Shown one piece after another: positions 40,979-64,000 of a stretch of DNA of 64,000 bases. A program made the translations under genes and the position numbers. The notes beneath the pieces were generated by a model that saw only the letters and a program-made list of their open reading frames with translations, was not told the origin of the DNA and searched no databases. Source of the DNA: Octopus vulgaris (lineage: Eukaryota); contig OX597815.1 in NCBI GenBank assembly GCA_951406725.2, positions 14,570,001 through 14,634,000 on the forward strand, in the 5' to 3' direction. How positions within the stretch are numbered: the first letter of the stretch is position 1; each line of letters opens with the position of its first letter.

Positions 40979-41865
40979 AAAGGCGGCGAGCTGGCAGAAA
41001 CGTTAGCATGCTGGGTGAAATGCTCAGCGGTATTTCGCCTGTCGTTACGTTCTGAGTTTAAATTCCGCCGAGATCGACTTTGCCTTTCATCCTTTCGGGG
41101 GGCGATATAATCGACTTAATCTGTCTGTCTGTCCTTGTTTGTCCCCTCTGTGTTTAGCCCCTTGTGGGTAGTAAAGAAAAAGAAACGTTAGCACGCCGGG
41201 TGAAATGCGTAGCCGTATTTCGTCTGCCGTTACGTTCTGAGTTCAAGTTCCGCCGAGGTCGACTTTGCCTTTCATCCTTTCGGGGTCGATAAATTAAGTA
41301 CCAATTACGCTCTGGGGTCGATATATAATCGACTTAATCCGTTTGTCTGTCCTTGTTTGTCCCCTCTGTGTTTAGCCCCTTGTGGGTAGTAAAGAAAAAG
41401 AAACGTTAGCACGCCGGGTGAAATGCGTAGCCGTATTTCGTCTGCCGTTACGTTCTGAGTTCAAATTCCGCCGAGGTCGACTTTGCCTTTCATCCTTTCG
41501 GGGTCGATAAATTAAGTACCAGTTACGCACTGGGGTCGATATAATCGACTTAATCCGTTTGTCTGTCCTTGTTTGTCCCCTCTGTGGTTAGCCCCTTGTG
41601 GGTAGTAAAGAATTATATATTATGGGTACTAAAGGCGGCGAGCTGGCAGAAACGTTAGCACGCCGGGTGAAATGCGTAGCCGTATTTCGTCTGCCGTTAC
41701 GTTCTGAGTTCAAGTTCCGCCGAGGTCGACTTTGCCTTTCATCCTTTCGGGGTCGATAAATTAAGTACCAGTTACGCACTGGGGTCGATATATAATCGAC
41801 TTAATCCGTTTGTCTGTCCTTGTTTGTCCCCTCTGTGGTTAGCCCCTTGTGGGTAGTAAAGAAAT
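40979..41865 (+). mobile_element. SINE family C array (trimer plus monomer)
   Basis: Four units; target motif TATTA(C/T)GGGTACT occurs three times. Confidence 0.88.
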
Positions 41866-43096: not shown

Positions 43097-43680
43097 AATT
43101 ATTGTATACAGTGCTCAGGTGCACCACAACTTGTCAAAAGTGCGTATAAAGCGTATGCAGTAATGTACAAATGTCTGAAAAGTGAACAGCGTACGAATCA
43201 GATACATGCTTGTGTGTGTATGGAGGGGAGAAAATCAGGTGTAGTGTTGGCGAATCTCAGGAAGCATGGAAGTTTTGAAGGATGCAGTGCTCCAACAACT
43301 AACAACTGATGCCGGCAGTTTGTTCCATGTTTCAGCAACTCTTAGCATGAAAAAATGTTTCCGAAAGTCATGGGAGCTGTGCTGTTTTCTGACTTTGTAA
43401 ACATGTCCACGGGTGTTAGACAGGTGGAGTTTGAAAAGGTGCTCAGAGTTATTGTTTGTTAGATGGTTAATAATTTTATGGGTGTCTGCCAAGTCAGCTG
43501 CCAGACGTCGGAGTTTCAATGTACCCATGCCCAGGGAAGTAAGGCGTTCAGAATATAGCAAATGCCTGATGGAGGGTATTCTCTTGGTTGCACGTCTCTG
43601 AACGGCTTCCAGACGATTAATATCCTGGGCAAGATAGGGGTTCCAGACCGGTGATACAAATTCCAGGTGAGGTCGCATGC
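43030..43680 (-). mobile_element. CR1-type LINE 3' fragment
   Basis: RPHLEF..VWNPY..LEAVQRRATK..TRGH; (TTA)n tail; same family as 60110-61218. Confidence 0.9.
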
Positions 43681-44430
43681 AATGGCGTGGTTTTGTAGGG
43701 AAAAATGACAAGGGAAAAGTGACCAGAAAAAAAATTGGAGCTTTTGACTGTAAGAAAAAGGGTGGGGTGGAATAATAGGGGCTCGTTTGAGTAAAAACAG
43801 ATTTATATTTTTACAAAATTTCAAGATGGAATAGCAGATGAAAGTGTTCAACCATCTCAATGATATCTCTCGTGGAAACAGATGTTAATAAACTCGATTA
43901 CAATTTAGAAGTGAAAAGCAAAAAAAAAGTGTTACTATAGCTTAAAACAACAGTAAACACCTCAAGTCAAAAATCCGAAATGAAATCTTAGTTATACACG
44001 TAAATAAATAAAAAATCTATAATGCTGTAACAATAGACAGTAAATTCTGTCTTGTGTCATCTTGATAACATCTCAGTCAGGGGCTGCAGATTTGGAAAGC
44101 TTATACAAAATCAAAAAGTAATTTGATACGTCAGTTATTTACAAACGCCATCTGCTCTATTATCTAGATAGAGAATTCTCGATGTTTATAACGCTGATAC
44201 AACACAAATCCAACATTCACCAGAATATCTACATATATTGGAAACTCTGAAAGTTTATCATACTAACTATACAGTTTGGCAGAAATAACTGTTTCATTAA
44301 TTAGTTCATTGATCAAATGTTGATAAGCTATGCATACAAACCAATGTATAGCAATGAGCTAGTTCCTCTGGTCGTCTGAAACGATTGTAACTTTGCATAA
44401 ACTTTTGTAACAACATTTTTCATTCTTAAT

Positions 44431-44487
<57 letters not shown>

Positions 44488-44490
<3 letters not shown>

Positions 44491-45190
44491 ACAATAAAGG
44501 AACGGCCATAATAGGCCATTCACCCACTAGAAATAACAGCCAAAGCTTCAACCGCAAATAAAAGTTAATTCAGTAAACCAGGAGAAAATTTAAAAAACAT
44601 TTACCCTGTAATTTCTTATACGATATACCGTTTCATCTGCTGATTAATGGTAAACTAACCTGATTAAATTAAATCAAGCCAATCTTCCACAGGCCCTCAG
44701 ATTCTTCAGTAAGAAATAGCCCAAGACGGAACAGATATTTTCACGAGGCATTTCCGACGTTGCCAAGTTAATATCTGACCTAAAATTTTCAAATCGTCGC
44801 ACTCGCGCCAAATTTATCGGCAGCAAATAAATATAAGCCGTCGATTCCATTACGGAATTAACCAGAAAATTCATAATTAATCAATATAGGGTGGCAAAAA
44901 AAATTTTGTAGAATTCTTTAGCCACCAGCGGTCTAGTAGGAAAAAATTAAAATAGTCATAGACCATTTTTAAGTTCAACATCAACAATAAAGAATTCTTT
45001 AGCCACCAGCGGTCTAGTAGGAAAAAATTAAAATAGTCATAGACCATTTTTAAGTTCAACATCAACAATAAAGGAACGGCCATATGTTGATGTTGAACTT
45101 AAAAATGGTCTATGACTATTTTAATTTTTTCCTACTAGACCGCTGGTGGCTAAAGAATTCTACAAAATTTTTTTGCCACCCTATATTGAT

Positions 45191-45193
<3 letters not shown>
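44488..45193 (-). mobile_element. Penelope/retrozyme-like non-coding unit with direct and inverted repeats
   Basis: 23-nt direct repeat at 44488 and 45062; ~80-bp tandem duplication; ~110-bp inverted copy; (TA)n on both sides; contains a hammerhead. Confidence 0.7.
44611..44717 (-). ncRNA. Complete type I hammerhead ribozyme
   Basis: Minus: stem I AUUUCUUA, CUGAAGA, stem II AUCUG...CAGAU, GAAA, stem III CGG-UAUA-UCG, cleavage triplet GUA, stem I' UAAGAAAU. Confidence 0.88.
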
Positions 45194-45229
<36 letters not shown>

Positions 45230-45659: not shown

Positions 45660-46060
45660 ACTCTTTTACTCTTTTACTTGTTTCAGTCATTTGACTGCGG
45701 CCATGCTGGAGCACCGCCTTTAGTCGAGCAAATCGACCCCGGGACTTATTCTTTGTAAGCCCAGTACTTATTCTATCGGTCTCTTTTGCCGAACCGCTAA
45801 GTGACGGGGACGTAAACACACCAGCATCGGTTGTCAAGCAATGCTAGGGGGACAAACACAGACACACAAACACACACACACATACATATATATATATACA
45901 TATATGCGACGGGCTTCTTTCAGTTTCCGTCTACCAAATCCACTCACAAGGCATTGGTCGGCCCGGGGCTATAGCAGAAGACACTTGCCCGAGGTGCCAC
46001 GCAGTGGGACTGAACCCGGAACCATGTGGTTGGTTAGCAAGCTACTTACCACACAGCCAC
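45660..46060 (-). mobile_element. SINE family D
   Basis: Reverse complement of family D. Confidence 0.88.
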
Positions 46061-46728
46061 TATGCACATACACACATATAAATACTTAGATATAGTTACA
46101 TTATGTTATTATATTCTTTCATACTATATTATATAATATATCATATATTATATTATATTATATTATATCATATTATATCATATTATATTATATAATATTT
46201 TATTATATTGCATTTCATTATAATATGTGATCGTCAGTGTAAATTTATATCATTAAGTTAATTAAGAACATGATAATTTTCAGATGATCATGGCCATATG
46301 AAATAATAAGATTAAAAGGAGTTTCATAACTACAAGAACGGAGAGAAATTAGTAAATAGTTGTGATAACTATGGGAATTGAAAGGCAATCAAAAGCAATG
46401 TTTATCTAATTCTATATAATATTAATTAACTAAATGGAATATTTAAAATAGTTTTATTAAATTGGTGTGAACAACAAATCAACAACTTGATACGTTAATT
46501 AATAAGTCCGAACTTGCAGCTCAGAATTTCTAATGCCACCATACAACATATATTGCAATTACTCCACTCTCTTTATAAATAATTTCTGTGCCTACAATCA
46601 ACCACGAAATGGAGCATTTAATATTTCTATTTTTAAGATTCCAATAAATTTTACAAATGGCGTTTTATGTAATTTGCGGTGTTACAAGAATGTATGTAAT
46701 TCTTGCATCTGAATCTGAATTTTGACGT

Positions 46729-47564: not shown

Positions 47565-48849
47565 TTAGGTTGTTCCGAAAATAATGGCCGCTCTAAGTGT
47601 TGTATTTTGAAACGCAATTTTATCACAGTATTTTAATAATATTTTAGGTGGATTTCAACATACGTAGTAATTGATGTATGCTCTTTAATAATTTTCTACT
47701 TATTTCAGACAGAAAACATTCTTGAATTATAGGTGTCCTTACTTATGAACATCACAAAAAAGGAGCTTCACTTACTTTTCTTGCATGAGTTCAAGCTTGG
47801 GCACAATTCCTCCCAAACTGCTTCCAATATCAACAGAGCATGGGGAGAGGGATCCACAAGTTATTGCACAGTACAAAGGTGGTTTCAGAAATTCCATAGT
47901 AGTGATGGGAGCCTTGAAGATGAAGAAGGTAGAGGACGGTTATGCAGTTTTGACAATGAACAATTGAAAGCAATTGTTGAACAAAACCCACGTCAAAATT
48001 TCAGAGAAACGTTTCAAGTACTTGGTGTCGGTATTGCAACGGTTTCACGCAACCTGCAGAAGATTGGTAAGGTGAAAAAGTTCGATAAATGGGTACCGCA
48101 TGAGCTCAATGAAAATCAAAATGTTCAGCGTTTTTAAGTGTCCTCAATGCTCTATCTGCGAAATACCAATGATCCTTTTCTTGACTGAATAGTCATCTGT
48201 GACGAAAAGTGGATCCTTTATGATAACCGTAAATGATAAGGTCAATAGCTTGATCGTGATGAGTCCCCCCAAACATTTCCCAAAGCCAAAGTTGCATCAG
48301 CAAAAGATTATGGTGACTGTCTGGTGGTCTGCAATTGGAGTTGTCCATTACAGCTTTCTGGAAGCCAATCAGAGCATTACAGCAGAGGTTTACTGCAATC
48401 AACTCGCTGAAATGCATGCTCACTTGCAAAAAATGAGACCTGCATTGGTGAATCGGATTGGGCCAATTCTGCTCCACGATAATGTAAAGCCACATTTTAC
48501 AAGAATGACGCTGCAGAAACTCACAGACTTGGAATACGAGACTTTACCATTTCCTCCATACTCTCCTGATCTTTCACCCACTAGCAACCATTTTTTTAAA
48601 GCATTTAAACACGTTTTTTAAGTGATAAAATTTTCAGGTCTAAACCAGAGATGGAATCAGCTTGCAAAGATTTCTTAGCATCAAAGCCAATAAGTTTTTA
48701 TCAACGGGGCACAAATAATCTCGTTGACCGATAGCAGAGAGGCATAGATGTTCACGGCTCATACTTTGATTAATCAAAACATTTCTATTGTTAATTTTTC
48801 CAGAATAAAATTGTTTCTGAAATCGGTCATTATTTTCGGAACGACCTAA
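47565..48849 (+). mobile_element. Full-length mariner (cecropia/Hsmar1-like) with pseudogenised transposase
   Basis: TIRs TTAGGTTGTTCCGAAAATAATGGCCG / CGGTCATTATTTTCGGAACGACCTAA; TA TSDs; WVPHEL, CDEKW, HDNVKPH, YSPDLSP; internal stops. Confidence 0.95.
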
Positions 48850-51739: not shown

Positions 51740-53331
51740 GTTTTTGAAGCACTGCATTCGCTGTCATACCCCGGTATTGCGGCCACAGTAAAGCTTACCT
51801 CGGCCCGCTTTTTCTGGCCGAATATGCGTCGGTCTATTACTGCTTGATCACGTGCTTGTCTACCATGTCAGCATTCCAAGGTGCATCGTCACGTGAGAGC
51901 ACCTCTTTGGCATTTCCAGTCACCAGACACCAGGTTCCGTCACATACACATCGACCTGGTTGGTCCTTGGCCGGTCAGTTGCGGATTTATTTATATATTG
52001 ACCTGCATCGACCGCTTCTCCAGTTGGCCTGAAGCCATCCCTCTCTTAGACATTTCCACAGAAACAGTCGCCAGAGCACTCATCTCCGGGTGGATATCTC
52101 GCTTCGGAGTACTCTCTAAAATTACTACTGATCGTGGACGCCAATTTGAAGCTTGACTGTTCCGTAAGCTTTGGAGATTGCTCGGAGTTCAGCACATCCA
52201 CACCACAAGTTACCATCCCGCCGCGAATGGTATGATGAAACGATTCCAAAGTCAGCTCAAAGCCGCTATTCGCACGGCTCCTGACCCTCGTCGTTGGTCC
52301 GAGTTTGTCCCCATTGTTCTGCTGGGTTGCCACTCAGCTGTCAAAGAGGATTTAGGCTACTCCTCCGCTGAGCTCCTGGACAAATGTTGGCGCCGGTTAC
52401 TTACCGAACACGGACCTCACATCTTACGTCACATGACTCAAGTCGTTCTTTGCTGACCTAACCACCGATTCTTCCTCGTAGCCAGTCCATTTCTTCTGCA
52501 GCTCCTCCGGATATTTCTACTTGGACTCACGTGTTTGTAAGAAATGATGCCGTCAAGGGACCGCTCACACCTCCCTACACTGGACCCTGTCCCGTTCTTA
52601 GAAGCACACCGAAACTGTTCAGTGTGGACGTTCACGGAAAAAAAGCGACTGTCTCTTTAGACAGAGTAAAAAAAAAGCCTTTTCCGAAACATTTATGCCA
52701 CTTGCGGACACACCCATCATTCCACAAAGACTTCCACCCTCACCTCCATAAACACCACCTCCATTCACCAAAACATCAACTACACAAACGCATTCTTCAC
52801 CTTACAGGACACCTTCTGAAAGATCGGTTCATTGGCCGAAGAAATTGTCTCAGACTATTTACATTTCTTAACTGCTTCGCCAGTGACTGTTCCGAAAAAT
52901 AGACTTCTGTTGTTATAGACACCGCATTCATATTTTCTCTTTTTCTGTATCATTGTACATATATGCTTTGTTCTATTTGATTATACACCTCTCTTTGCTG
53001 AACGTTTTTCCTTGTACATACTTGCATCGTACTTTTTTCAGTTGTTCATACAGCTGTTTTGCCATGGTTCATTCTTCTGTGCCCTCCTAGCGCATACCTA
53101 CTCCGCCTACAATAACACTACTCTTAATAGACCCTTCCGGTCTGAGGGCGAGGGCCTCTGTAGGCGCAGTTACCTCCTTTGACAGCGAGTTTAAATAAGC
53201 TCGCTAGATGGCGCTAGAGAGTGAGATTCTTACGACTTTCTCTTTTCTCGCGAAGACGTCAGACCGTAAAGACGTGATCTAGTCGGCTCTCTGACACCAC
53301 ACGCCAGCTAACAGACAGGGGGTAACGCACA
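51740..53331 (+). mobile_element. Gypsy 3' portion: integrase relic, PPT and 3' LTR
   Basis: [37 protein letters not shown]; purine tract GAGGGCGAGGG then LTR TGTAGGCG...GCACA (53159-53331). Confidence 0.9.
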
Positions 53332-55603: not shown

Positions 55604-56888
55604 GGATCTTTTCAGTTTGAAGGCCAGATTTTCCTAGTTAACTAAACAATTTGAAACTTCGTATACTGGTAGAATGTGTCAAAAGAAAACATAATTGTAA
55701 ACCAAAATGAAAACGGAATTGTAATTTCTAAGTTTAACGTTGTTTAATAATTCGAATTTTAACCAATGATATTCTTTCTTTCGACTTCATATCATTTACT
55801 GCCTCTCAAAATATTGTTACTGTGCCGTAAACAGTTATTTTGTGACGTAGTTAACGTAAACATGTAAATAGCTGAAATGTAAACATCCGCTTATCGTAAC
55901 TAAACACTTTCAAACTTCGTGGAGTATATATAAAATTTGTGTAGATCCTAAATAGCTAAATTCTTTTTGAAAGTCTTAGTATATATAAAATGAGTGTTTA
56001 AATTATTTTCCATTGTTTGCATTGCTTACACACACACACATACATACATACACACATACTAAAATTACATCGTTGGAGCAGTAATTTATTTATGTATTTT
56101 TTGTTATACAATTTATTTGGATCTTTTCATTTTGAAGAACCCCTTTCTTATAAAATAGTTGAAGAATCTGGGGTGTAGGAATTGGGCCAGTATTGGAACT
56201 TTTAACTTCTTGCTCTCTATCTTATGATCTCCGAAATTTAAGAATCTTGTGTTAACTGGGCTCTTATTATTTACTCTGACTCTGCCACCACCTTAATGTA
56301 AAGATATCAGAATCATCTTCACAACCACCACTGCAACCATTACTACAACACCCAATGCCACCACCACAACCATCTTCTGCAACCACAACCCCAAGATCAA
56401 TACCAGCATCATATTCAAAATCACCAATTTCACCACCACTACACTCTGCAATGTCTTCAACACTACCATCCATGAGACATCCTAACATAATCAATGCTAC
56501 TACTACTATCATCATCATTATCATCATCATCCACTGCCGCCACCACCACCTCCACCTCTACAAAAACACCAACACTATAATTGCTGCCACCATACACATC
56601 CTCTGTCACCACTTCACCACCACTGCCATGATAACCACATCTACCACAGCTGTTTGCTTACTGCTTACCTACGTCACAGTAACACTATGCAGCTAATAAT
56701 TTCAAATGAAAACAGACGATACGATTGGTTAAAATTCGCAGATTTAAACTACCTTTAAACTTATAAAATACATTTTTGTCAAAAAAACTAGTTGAAATTA
56801 ATGTTTTCTTTTGACACATTCTACCAGTATACGAAGTTTCAAATTATTTAGTTAACTAGAAAATCTGGCCTTCAAACTGAAAAGATCC
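55604..56888. mobile_element. Non-autonomous DNA transposon with ~88-bp TIRs
   Basis: GGATCTTTTCAGTTTGAAGGCCAG...GAAAACAT and its near-perfect reverse complement at 56801-56888. Confidence 0.85.
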
Positions 56889-59300
56889 ATCTTTGCAGTC
56901 TGGCTGGTGCTTTCATGAGGTTTTTTCTATGTATTTGTTCTAGCGGGCGATGGTCTGTTTCACTATTGAAATGTCTTCCATACAGGTATGTATGGAACAT
57001 TTCACATCCATATACTACTGCCAGGAGTTCCCTTTCAATATTTGCGTACCTTGTCTCTGTGGGTGAGAGAGCTTTCGAGGCATATGCAATGGGTTTACCT
57101 TCCTGTAACACTGCTGCACCAACTCCTCTCATAGAAGCATCGACTTGGAGTGTTACTGGTTTGCGTCTGTCATAGTATTGCAGAGTTGTCTCCTTACTGA
57201 TGAGCTTTTTGATTGCTTTGAAATCCTGTGTGTGTGAAGCACACCAATCAAACTCTACGTCATCTTTGTTTAGTTCTCGGAGATTTGCAGTGTGATCGGC
57301 CAGCTTGGGTATGAAGGCTCCCATGTAGTGAATGAGTCTCAGGAAGCTCCTGAGTTCCTTCTTGTCTTTAGGTTCTTTAATGTCTCTGATGGCTTCCACT
57401 TTAGCGGGGTCTGGTTTAACTCCCTCTGCAGAGTATATAATTCTAAAGAATTTGCACTCCTTTGCTTTTATCACAGACTTGTCTGCATTGAGTTTGATGC
57501 CTGCTTGTCGAGTTTTCTCCATAGCTTCATGTAAATTGAAGTCATGTGTGGTCTCATCCTTGCCATGCACTTGGATGTCATCTGCTATTCCAATTGCTCC
57601 CTTGCAGCCTTGGTAGGTCTCATCTATTTGGCGCTGGAAAACATCTTGGCTCACCTTCAATCCAAATGGGAGTCGGTTGAATCGATATCTGCCAAATGGT
57701 GTGTTGAAGGTAGTGAGCATGGATGACTCTTTGTCTATCTTTACATTCCAGTACCCATTGCTGGCATCCAGTTTGCTGAATAATTTGGACCCAGCCAATG
57801 ATGGTATGATTTCTTCAAGGGTTGCAATTGGATGGTACTCTCTTTTTAATGCTTTGTTCAGGTCCCTTGGGTCGAGGCATATCCGTAGGGTACCATTGGG
57901 TTTTTCCTTTATTACAATTGAATTCACCCAGTCTGTTGGTCGTGTCACTTCGGTGATTATTTCTTTTTTTTCCCATTCTGTCCAACTCTGTCTTCAGCTT
58001 CTCTTTTAGTTCTATAGGGACGCGGCGAGGTGGGTGAACAATTGGTTTGATATTGGGGTCGACTGTTATATGGCATCGACATTTCACAAAGCACCCGACT
58101 ATATCATCAAAGCATTCATGGTACATGCTTATCAGTTCCTCTTTGTTTGTGATTGGTGGTCGGTCTTTGATAGGCATATCTCTGTCAATCCTGCTCGGAG
58201 TTGCCTTCACTTCACCATTGAATGACACAATATTTAGCTTTTTGCAGGTATTGAGTCCAAGAATTGCTGGTCCTTCTGTTCTTGTGACATAAAAAGAACA
58301 CTTGATTGTTTTTCCTTTGTGTGTCCCTGTGATTGTTGTTTTGCCCAGTTGTGGAATCCTGGTACCTCCGTACGCAGTGAGGATTACATCACTTGGTATG
58401 AGGATTCCTTCTTTGACTATAAACCTCTTGTGTCATGTGTTCTGGGAACATCTTTTTGTAGAGGTTGACAGGCAAGATATCACTCTGGGCTCCGGTGTCA
58501 ATCTTCAGCCTTAAGTCAATGTTTATTCATTTCTTGCCAGACTTCTTTTGAATTCTTATTGTTGTGTATGCCTCATTTTTTTTCTGGTCGTCATTTCCCA
58601 TCTCATACTCATTTATTGTGTCGACTGCCAAGAATTCCTCCTCTGAGGTGTTTTGTTCCTGTGGTTGTGCATGTATATCTCTTTGAAAATTGGGGCTTGT
58701 ATTTCTGAGATTTTTTTAGTCTACACATTTTTTCCCAATGGTTAGGCTTTCCACATGCTTTTCACTGTGTACCGAATGCAGGACATTTCTTCCGGTTGTC
58801 GAACTCATGTCTGTACCACAGTACTGGCATGTTCTTTGTTTGCAGGTACGTTTCGTCCTGCACCTAGATACAATATCTACACTGCAGCCTAGTGAGCTTG
58901 TTTGTAAGGTAAGTGAGGCCATTTGTTTGGTAGTAGCTTCGAATGCTCTTGCAGTGTCTACTGCTTCTATCAACTGGAGAGCGTCCTTACCTATGAGGGA
59001 TTTCTGAACTTCTTTATGAGCACAACCCCATATTAATTGATCAACAATTCTTTTGTCCTTATCTTTGAATTTGCATTTTTCGGCAACATTCTTTAGTCTG
59101 GACAGGAAATTGTCAATCGTTTCTTGTTTCAGGCCCTGGAATTCGTATCTGTGAATTCTATGGTTCGATCTGGGCTCTAGGTGCCTTTCAAATTTCTCTA
59201 AAAGTGTGTCTGGGTTATTGCAATCCGATTCTGACATGCCCCAGCTATTGATTAGGTCTAGGCCCTTCTCTACTTGCTGGGACCAGTATTCCGTTTGGGA
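56889..59300 (-). mobile_element. Gypsy (Mag-like) gag-protease-RT-RNase H, truncated
   Basis: Gag knuckle remnant CQYCG, protease KIDTGA, RT LPFGL and IADDI, RNase H VDAS, IERELLA, TDHRPL; frameshifts in gag/pro. Confidence 0.92.
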
Positions 59301-59324
59301 CATGCTTTTGAAATGGAAAGAAAG

Positions 59325-59700
59325 CATGCCCTTTTTTGGAACGACTTCTGACTGGAGACGAAAAATGGATTGCACGCTTAATGTTGTGCAAAACTGATCC
59401 TGGAGTTTGCAGAAATATTCCCCAAGCAACCAAAGATGAATATCCATGGCAACAAACCCGTCCTTTGTGTTTGGTGGAAACATAAAGGCATTAATATGAC
59501 CTTCTCCCATAAAACCAGACCATTCATTCTGATGTGTTCTGTCGTCAACTGGCTAATTTGAACCAAAATATATCAAAGAACTGCGGTTGGAGATTACCAA
59601 CAGAAAAGCATTAGTCTTCCAACAAGACAATGCCCGACCACTGTCAAATAGAAAGGATTCACCCTAACTCCCTCATATTCCTTATAGTCTTCATTGTTAT
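59325..59700 (+). mobile_element. Mariner transposase catalytic-domain fragment
   Basis: PFLERLLTGDEKWI, LCVWW, VFQQDNARP. Confidence 0.8.
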
Positions 59701-60109
59701 CATTTTTATGTCGTATGTTTTTTAAACCAATATTCTTTCATCAGATGCATTCTTAATTGAATTCTTTTCTTTTTGCTTTGCATCTTGTACAGATTTAAGT
59801 CTTTAATTTTATAAATATATATTTATATAATCTTTTAGGTGTTTATCCATTATCCAAAAACAAAAGGTCCCGGTCACTATTCATGGCCTCGGTGTCTAGT
59901 GAGGCAATCATCATCATCATCATCATCATCATTTAACGTCCGCTTTCCATGCTAGCATGGGTTGGAAAACTGGATTGGGTTATTCCTGAAACCAAAACAC
60001 TCTAAAGTGGAGCCTGTATTGTGTCTGCATCAAAAGATAGTCGCTCATCTGCTACTCACTGAAAACTGAAGGAAATTGGAATACGGTAATTACTTAATAC
60101 ACATTTCAT

Positions 60110-61218
60110 GCACAATTTTATGAGGTTGTCACAGTTCTAGGACAGTACTCTTCGCCCTATGAGATGACATCTGGTGTACCACAGGGATCTGTTCTTGGCC
60201 CCCTTTTATTTGTTGCATATGTTACTGACATAGATGCCAACTTAAAGAATGCCACAGTGCTGAAATATGCAGATGACATCAAGCTGTACCTCGAAATAAA
60301 GAGGTCAAATCTATTGCAAGCAGACCTGGACACAATGCAGCAGTGGATCATGGACTGGCAACTCAAGCTGGCTGAGGACAAATGTACCACCATGCATTTT
60401 GGGAGGAGAAACCCAGCGTCCACCTACTCCCTCCACAACACTAGTCTCAAAAAGTCTTCATGTGAACGTGACCTGGGTGTTATTGTCGACAGTGATTTGC
60501 GTTGGACAAAACACATCGCTAAAATTGTCAAGAAGGCTGAGGGTGTCTTGGCATCACTCACCAAATCCTTTGTGAGCCGCACTCCGGTTATACATCTGCG
60601 GCTTTATATAGCTATGGTAAGACCTCACCTGGAATTTGCATCACCGGTCTGCAACCCCTATCTTGCCCAGGATATCAATCGTCTGGAAGCTGTTCAGCGA
60701 CATGCAACCAAAAGAATACCCTCCATCAGGCATTTGCCATATCCTGAACGCCTTACTTCCCTGGGCATGGACACATTGAAACTCCGACGTCTGGCAGTTG
60801 AAGTGGCAGACACCCATAAAATTATCAACCATCGTACAAACAATAACTCTGAGCACCTTTTCAAACTCCACCCATCTAACACCCGTGGACATATTTACAA
60901 AGTAAGAAAACAGCAGTTCCCATGACTTCAGGAAACATTTTTTCACACTAAGAGTTGCTGAAGCATGGAACAAACTGCCGGCATCAGTTGTTAGTTGTCG
61001 GAGCACTGCATCCTTCAAAACTTCCATGCTTCCTGAGATCCACCCACGCTACACTTGATTTTCTCCCCTCCATACACACACAAGCATGTATCTGACACAT
61101 ACATTGTTTGCTTTCCAGACATTTCTACATTACTGCATGTACTTTATATGCACTTTCTGACAAGTTGTGGTGCACCTGAGCACTGTATGCAATAATTTCA
61201 TTATTATTATATTATTAT
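60110..61218 (+). mobile_element. CR1-type LINE, 5'-truncated (RT ORF 60164-60925)
   Basis: GVPQGSVLGPLLF, YADD, ERDLGV, TRGH; (TTA)n tail. Confidence 0.93.

Positions 61219-62824: not shown

Positions 62825-64000
<1,176 letters not shown>

Follow-up and report, generated by a model that had tools for sequence, protein, structure and literature searches.

How did a non-coding insert bearing a hammerhead motif come to lie between two (TA)n tracts at this Octopus vulgaris locus, and to which class of mobile element does it belong? A preliminary description of the 64-kb stretch analysed here (hereafter 'the window') had read the insert as a circularly permuted unit of ~490 nt, derived by reverse transcription from a circular or tandem RNA, and had offered two identities for it: the pseudo-LTR (pLTR) of a Penelope-like element, or a retrozyme-like family. 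According to published proposals, retrozymes travel as RNA circles with the help of Penelope-like enzymes; these proposals draw on co-occurrence and similarity to pLTRs, and the mechanism is described there as open (PMC7229834; 10.64898/2026.07.22.740005). The analysis below points, with a probability of roughly 70%, to a non-autonomous non-LTR retrozyme, mobilised by a Penelope-type enzyme into (TA)n and near-perfectly preserved as a recent copy; the recency of the copy is, taken by itself, likely.

Anatomy of the insert and its flanks

The arrangement of the insert was observed directly in the sequence, and comprises the following features (strands are those of the window; the ribozyme is read on the minus strand):

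44434-44487, no strand: (TA)27 target microsatellite, at the 3' end of the element on the ribozyme strand (sequence; its role in priming a first cDNA is putative)
44488-44980, minus: 493-nt non-coding unit (joint from 44980 to 44488 present in three sequencing runs)
44488-44510, minus: 3'-terminal 23-mer, an overlap comparable to the Penelope 'tail' (repeated at 45062-45084)
44492-44529, minus: predicted hairpin 1 at the RNA 3' end (folding, z = -3.45), with predicted inner stem 44500-44507 / 44514-44521 and loop 44508-44513
44890-44926, minus: predicted hairpin 2, with loop 44906-44911, within 44877-44926 (folding)
44910-45071, no strand: exact 81-nt tandem duplication with 2-nt microhomology (sequence)
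44981-44992: 12 nt of a putative second round, before a slip (sequence)
45062-45084, minus: second copy of the 23-mer, end of the direct part of the insert (sequence)
45085-45193, plus: 109-nt inverted copy of 44877-44986, a head-to-head inversion at the 5' end (sequence)
45195-45226, no strand: (TA)16 target microsatellite, at the 5' end of the element (sequence)

The two copies of the 23-mer are offset by 574 nt, and their exact match reaches 24 nt when the preceding A is included (44487-44510 and 45061-45084). The two copies of the duplication (44910-44990 and 44991-45071) are 100% identical over 81 nt, or exact over 83 nt if the AG microhomology is counted. Subtraction of 81 from 574 yields a unit of 493 nt, and the insert corresponds to one unit plus the 23-nt overlap. 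The inverted piece is the reverse complement of its source except for one homopolymer base fewer, and the sequence beyond the right (TA)n is unrelated to the left flank. In all of these respects the preliminary description proved accurate, including the 23-mer at both ends (44488 and 45062), an '~80-bp' duplication that it placed at 44910-45070, an '~110-bp' inverted copy at 45085-45193 and (TA)n on both sides; only its phrase 'inverted tail' must be revised, since, read on the ribozyme strand, the inverted piece stands at the 5' terminus.

The absence of any protein motif, also claimed at that stage, was likewise borne out. The unit has a GC content of 35%, and when circularised its longest ATG frames span 66 codons on the ribozyme strand and 3 on the other; the 66-codon frame, being short, was not taken as coding. 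As a circle, the unit folds better than its shuffles (z = -5.0, 40 shuffles). The insert contains no reverse transcriptase (RT) or GIY-YIG frame, a Pfam scan of 47 of the 91 long frames in the window recovered no Penelope-type RT or GIY-YIG domain, and no second copy of the unit lies within the 64 kb. Judged by its reading frames, then, the element at this locus is not an autonomous Penelope-like element.

It is very improbable that the family is real and that the 81-nt duplication and the inverted copy are products of assembly or of long-read error at this one locus. Such an origin would accord with internal repeats that are identical or one homopolymer base apart, and with the absence of the duplication and inversion junctions from the joints listed for sequencing runs, the aligned stretch having excluded them; it is countered by the form of the inversion, which is short and gives way to (TA)n and to sequence unrelated to the left flank, unlike a fold-back read, and by the match between the whole arrangement and published Penelope structures (PMC8557442; PMC3846280).

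A hammerhead motif with an extended helix II

A pattern scan for type I hammerheads found a full core and three helices on the minus strand at 44611-44717. This was the sole match in the window, with none in 60 dinucleotide-shuffled windows, and the ribozyme named in the title of the preliminary description is therefore a real motif. Its parts are as follows:

44717-44710 with 44618-44611, minus: stem I, 8 bp (motif scan)
44709-44703, minus: core CUGAAGA (motif scan)
44635-44702, minus: helix II, an unusually long extended hairpin of 68 nt (motif scan, folding)
44634-44631, minus: core GAAA (motif scan)
44620-44631, minus: helix III, 2 bp and a self-complementary 12-mer (motif scan, folding)
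between 44619 and 44618, minus: predicted cut after GUA (motif scan)

The hammerhead region folds better than all 200 of its shuffles (z = -4.1). The closing pair of helix II is A-U, as against the canonical G10.1-C11.1, and the predicted active fold lies 3.3 kcal/mol above the minimum, which together point against efficient cutting. The 12-mer of helix III is predicted to reach only -0.2 kcal/mol as a hairpin and -13.6 kcal/mol as a duplex between two copies, a palindromic layout of the kind described for dimer-acting animal and Penelope hammerheads (PMC4209133). A canonical monomer-active type I motif combines the G10.1-C11.1 pair with a helix II of 4 bp that makes a loop contact and with a stable helix III. 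These traits are lacking here at 10.1-11.1, in the 68-nt helix II and in the 2-bp helix III, and the modelled structure fits the dimer type.

This hammerhead was missed by Rfam, a search of which with the whole window gave no match at gathering score. None of the 26 matches reported by E-value was a hammerhead, and all were rejected, as each fell under its family threshold and the best were microRNA-type hairpins formed by the inverted repeat. A relaxed short-helix hammerhead scan of the window also returned nothing, and no HDV-like, twister or pistol motif was found there by eye. Descriptors built on short helices would be likely to miss this 68-nt helix II as well, so that similar families may hide among unclassified cephalopod repeats. 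An extended helix II is not peculiar to this unit: two of the plant Penelope-like hammerheads tabulated elsewhere have helix II loops of ~30-35 nt (PMC8557442 supplement).

A diverged multi-copy family

Evidence for a family was drawn from public sequencing runs. The stretch was present, whole or in part, in 20 of the 24 runs listed, 19 of them with at least half of its words, under four organism labels. Two DNA runs (X1, which may be the source sample, and X7) and two runs guessed to be RNA (X2 and X4) were examined contig by contig, leaving aside X20 (share 0.06), X21-X24 (0.00) and X9, a run from organism D. Contigs aligning to the stretch numbered 4,433 in X1 and 13,321 in X7, in identity bands from 99+ to <90, with the proviso that contig depth in such runs does not equal copy number. 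The unit is a diverged multi-copy family, contrary to the possibility, raised at the outset, of a single-copy sequence. Scans of metagenome contigs (two patterns) and of viral contigs (one) yielded no loci.

A head-to-tail joint from 44980 to 44488 was observed directly in nine contigs of X1, four of X7 and one of X4, along with variant forms. The preliminary description had proposed a search for tandem copies, and the head-to-tail junction is present in both DNA runs examined. The best-supported loose ends at either end of the unit in X1 and X7 consist mostly of the unit's own opposite end, and none of the contigs listed for these runs covers a whole unit. In X4, a single contig of 523 nt equals 493 nt plus a 30-nt overlap and forms a closed cycle; in X2, three contigs overlap, by length arithmetic and with no joint row of their own, into a cycle of 492 nt. 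The RNA status of both runs is a guess, and a contig cycle would look the same whether it came from a circle, a tandem transcript or DNA. The joint and the closed cycle fit the derivation of a monomer with overlap from circular or tandem RNA, as originally suggested.

The X2 run supplied a second terminus at which (TA)n adjoins the 44488 site. Both of the (TA)n-adjoining direct termini available therefore begin at one site, where permuted start points had been anticipated; random circular permutation is rejected for now, and the start site of the element, on the strength of two copies, looks fixed.

Several further observations concern the family at large. Members with internal deletions of 48-314 nt, some lacking part or all of the hammerhead, occur in X1 and X7 as single contigs each, and in X7 the sequence directly at the unit junction is highly variable.

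These contigs also bear on whether the insert could instead be a 5'-truncated copy of a Penelope-like element that is autonomous, such as one from the Hydra or Neptune clade, in which case the unit would be a pseudo-LTR region, itself tandem, with no life of its own. All of the insertion hallmarks are those of autonomous Penelope-like elements (PMC8557442; PMC3846280), the hammerhead resembles that of the Hydra clade in its palindromic helix III, sense-strand orientation and position near the 3' end, a cut after A occurs in 12 of the 26 Hydra rows of File S2 (PMC8557442), and 31 Penelope-like families have been recently active in Octopus vulgaris (PMC13282606). This origin is nevertheless unlikely. 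In X1 as in X7, the share of contigs that continue into unlike sequence is 0 and the best-supported loose ends lead to the unit's other end; the probable RNA contigs close on themselves. No attached Penelope-like reading frame, which the preliminary description took as the mark of an ordinary pLTR, was seen in contigs whose listed pieces, at ~70-115 nt, are too short to reach a distant one. The 47 window frames scanned hold no Penelope-type RT or GIY-YIG domain, and by their motifs the RT at 60098 looks LINE-like and that at 56875 LTR-like.

The 493-nt family thus shares with metazoan non-LTR retrozymes a type I motif, a non-coding sequence, a GC content below 45%, multi-copy status and head-to-tail junctions, and it probably works as such a retrozyme, moved by a Penelope-like enzyme. 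The two identities first offered are largely one thing in the literature; as between a retrozyme-like family and the pLTR of an autonomous element, the former is the more probable. The family is likely to be a new one of a known kind: no cephalopod retrozyme was found in the literature searched, and repeat libraries such as Repbase and Dfam may already contain it under an unclassified or Penelope heading.

Sequence variation and the subfamily of the window copy

Changes at 44625 and 44626, within helix III, account for 73% and 75% of depth in X7 and for 10% and 8% in X1; together they keep the palindrome, with a predicted duplex of -17.5 kcal/mol. A loose-end consensus from X1 carries both changes together in a further form that is self-complementary by eye. 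In helix II, a change at 44639 is matched by one at 44698 that appears in a loose-end consensus of X7, the two not occurring together on one contig, and a change at 44635 (21% of X7 depth) would break the closing pair unless it has a partner that was not listed. None of the 38 variable positions listed falls within the 33 positions of the core and stems I and III (P = 0.07), a conservation that, taken alone, is weak evidence.

At 44920 and 44932, the letters of the window copy are nearly absent from the DNA runs, in which another letter makes up more than 99.6% of depth, and these rare letters are present in all three internal copies at the locus, which points to a single template for all three. 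The long contigs of X2 and X4 are two to three letters, plus homopolymer gaps, away from the window copy. They share its letters at 44643 and 44690, positions at which other letters make up 72-76% of depth in X1 and more than 99% in X7; the window copy accordingly belongs to the subfamily that dominates both X2 and X4.

Other repeats and frames in the window

The window holds several other mobile sequences. A tRNA-like, SINE-type repeat at 40980-41864 comprises several head-to-tail units of ~218 nt, with A- and B-box-like motifs by eye, and recurs at ~10 other places in the window, often as partial tandems. ARAGORN found no tRNA gene in the window and left this repeat uncalled, and hammerhead scans found none within it; its partial tandems could also reflect mobilisation of the Penelope type. 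A second SINE-like repeat (45660-46070), ~400 nt long with an internal (CA)/(TA) tract, is of a kind typical of octopus genomes; the window contains four further copies of it that are nearly full-length, at 89-95% identity, in addition to fragments.

Two 3' fragments of a LINE-like RT element, at 43100-43760 (minus) and 60098-61194 (plus), are 91% identical, and an (ATA)n tract lies close to the end of the former. At 47733-48618, 51848-52153 and 56875-59552 there are broken frames of mariner-type transposases, the core of an integrase and an RT/RNase H frame of LTR type, the last with a gag-like frame upstream of it. A C2H2 zinc-finger array frame with seven finger matches occupies 62828-63481 (minus). 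A homologue search with this frame, in which 8,000 candidates were scored, says very little about the host: among at least 120 matches the highest identity listed (63%) belongs to an Octopus sinensis protein, but the majority are vertebrate proteins at 36-61%.

A model for the insertion

Penelope-like elements leave partial tandems, an inverted 5' copy and a tail of 30-40 bp at (TA)n targets (PMC8557442; PMC3846280). Each of these is found at the locus: a partial tandem with a short terminal extension (one unit plus 23 nt, against published tails of 30-40 bp), an inverted 5' copy (45085-45193) that starts internally, 104 nt from the main 3' end, and a (TA)n target with no discernible target-site duplication. 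Studies of a purified Penelope protein from an anole further demonstrated that it cuts AT-rich DNA and extends both strands, that synthesis begins within its RNA, at two sites located downstream of the hammerhead, and that hammerhead cleavage is unnecessary for its insertion in vitro (PMC11167929).

We infer the participation of a Penelope enzyme, the order of events and cleavage in dimers. Head-to-tail transcripts would be cut once per unit by the predicted hammerheads, paired as dimers through the palindromic helix III, and the resulting monomers may close into circles; whether the template was circular, or a linear RNA of more than unit length, is about evenly balanced. The RT and endonuclease of a Penelope-like element would then have written the retrozyme RNA, corresponding to the ribozyme strand, into (TA)n, with the plus strand representing first-strand cDNA. 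That cDNA would have been primed by a nick in the left (TA)n, beginning at a fixed position that lies 131 nt downstream of where the ribozyme cuts, and synthesis would have covered one full unit, passing through an uncut hammerhead. The enzyme would have run 12 nt into a second round, jumped back 81 nt on the AG dinucleotide, and finally stopped 23 nt into the second round. One of the two second-round breakpoints sits at the foot of the inner stem of predicted hairpin 1 and the other in the middle of that hairpin's loop, and the 81-nt jump lands in the loop of predicted hairpin 2. The inverted piece would correspond to cDNA that set out from the right (TA)n at position 44877 and went 6 nt beyond the first start, either as a second cDNA from the other flank or as a fold-back on the nascent cDNA; as this piece follows the unduplicated sequence, it suggests a second primed cDNA, or else a fold-back that skipped the duplication.

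LINEs are known to generate 5' inversions through twin priming and to use microsatellite targets, and fragments of LINE RTs lie in the window, so that a retrozyme or satellite-like hammerhead repeat might instead have been moved by a LINE enzyme (of RTE, CR1 or R4 type), with the inversion as a product of twin priming. In L1 twin priming, the inverted piece derives from sequence upstream of the direct piece, whereas the inverted piece here duplicates part of the direct piece. The element also has no poly(A) or simple-repeat tail of its own, and its 3' end falls inside a unit that is circularly continuous and recurs at the same site in X2, in the manner of internal initiation by Penelope. Although Cervera and de la Pena allow for LINEs as possible partners of retrozymes (PMC7229834), a LINE origin seems quite improbable at this locus.

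Returning to the Penelope-type mechanism, a more specific version of it may be considered, in which the insertion is the footprint of an RT acting on one RNA circle, with two priming modules and with stalls at its own cDNA; this version is tentative and on balance doubtful. The two modules, 104 nt apart, are similar (a hairpin followed by CCU(U/A)UAUUG), and each would have been primed from one side of the target, while cDNA ends crossing the first start would have stalled within 6-23 nt as the enzyme met its own cDNA. A circular template of this sort predicts stops shortly past the start, and the three cDNA ends that extend beyond the start site lie at 6, 12 and 23 nt from it. Ends that were independent and uniform would give such stops about once in 10,000, a figure to be read with the fact that these three ends are not independent; the hairpin, or a linear RNA ending there, could equally be their cause. 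Both cDNA starts lie 4-5 nt from CAATA(A/T)AGG, of which the unit has only two occurrences, each beside a hairpin; the chance of this placement is ~1%, for a motif picked after the fact and a second site represented by one copy.

Implications

Retrozymes are already a known class, which limits the surprise of another. The interest of the present family lies in its being young and abundant, with the full anatomy of a single insertion, so that start sites, overlaps and inversion ends could be counted genome-wide as a direct test of circular against tandem templates. Were the circular version correct, a circular template with two start sites would be the source of both the Penelope 'tail' and the inverted 5' copy of such elements, and the family, abundant and carrying a putatively dimeric hammerhead with a long helix II, would constitute a natural data set of thousands of events with which to test it.

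Comparison with known systems

Non-LTR retrozymes of coral, mussel and axolotl are non-coding, low-GC hammerhead repeats that are expressed as circles (PMC7229834; PMC7761336), and Cervera and de la Pena (2020) proposed Penelope-like elements as their partners (PMC7229834). The octopus unit resembles these metazoan elements in its low-GC non-coding sequence, its one type I hammerhead and its head-to-tail junctions, and resembles the dimer-acting motifs of axolotl in its weak helix III. It differs from them in length (493 nt, as compared with ~170-400 nt) and in its 68-nt helix II, and also in that circles and cleavage have been demonstrated for metazoan retrozymes, whereas both are putative for the octopus unit (PMC7229834). 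The main text of that study contains no cephalopod retrozyme.

Endonuclease-bearing Penelope-like elements of the Hydra clade, described by Craig et al. (2021), share with the locus a (TA)n target, a partial tandem and an inverted 5' copy, as well as a sense-strand hammerhead near the 3' end with a palindromic helix III (PMC8557442). Unlike those elements, the 493-nt insert has no RT or GIY-YIG frame, its overlap is 23 nt rather than 30-40, and its helix II is far longer than those of the Hydra motifs listed (PMC8557442). The 3' ends of Hydra-1_Obim, Naiad_Obim and Naiad_Ovul show no match to the unit that is visible by eye (PMC8557442), and, again by eye, the hammerhead motif of the octopus element Hydra-1_Obim differs from that in the window (PMC8557442 supplement). 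Two short motifs, searched in the same supplement, gave no matches in one case and, in the other, a single match in an unrelated context. In the repeat annotation of Octopus vulgaris that reported the recently active Penelope-like families, the word ribozyme is absent from the main text (PMC13282606).

The Poseidon element of Anolis carolinensis (Frangieh et al. 2024, PMC11167929) offers a biochemical counterpart, in that its cDNA starts within the RNA, downstream of the hammerhead, at AT-rich DNA, and extension is possible on both target strands. The Poseidon tail is defined by a pair of start sites; Poseidon is autonomous and its sites are 30-40 bp apart, whereas the two candidate sites in the octopus unit are 104 nt apart, the second being drawn from one copy (PMC11167929).

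Most recently, Li, Clavereau and Pollet (2026) argued that animal retrozymes are non-autonomous Penelope-like sequences, on the basis of co-occurrence and similarity to pLTRs in a sample of 31 vertebrates, three insects and one coral (10.64898/2026.07.22.740005). These investigators reported unit lengths of 51-972 bp, common dispersed monomers, and cleavage in one of nine retrozyme dimers tested (10.64898/2026.07.22.740005). The identity proposed here is the same and the 493-nt unit falls inside their range of lengths; beyond that study, the octopus locus contributes the anatomy of a single insertion, comprising an inverted 5' copy, an overlap and a (TA)n target.
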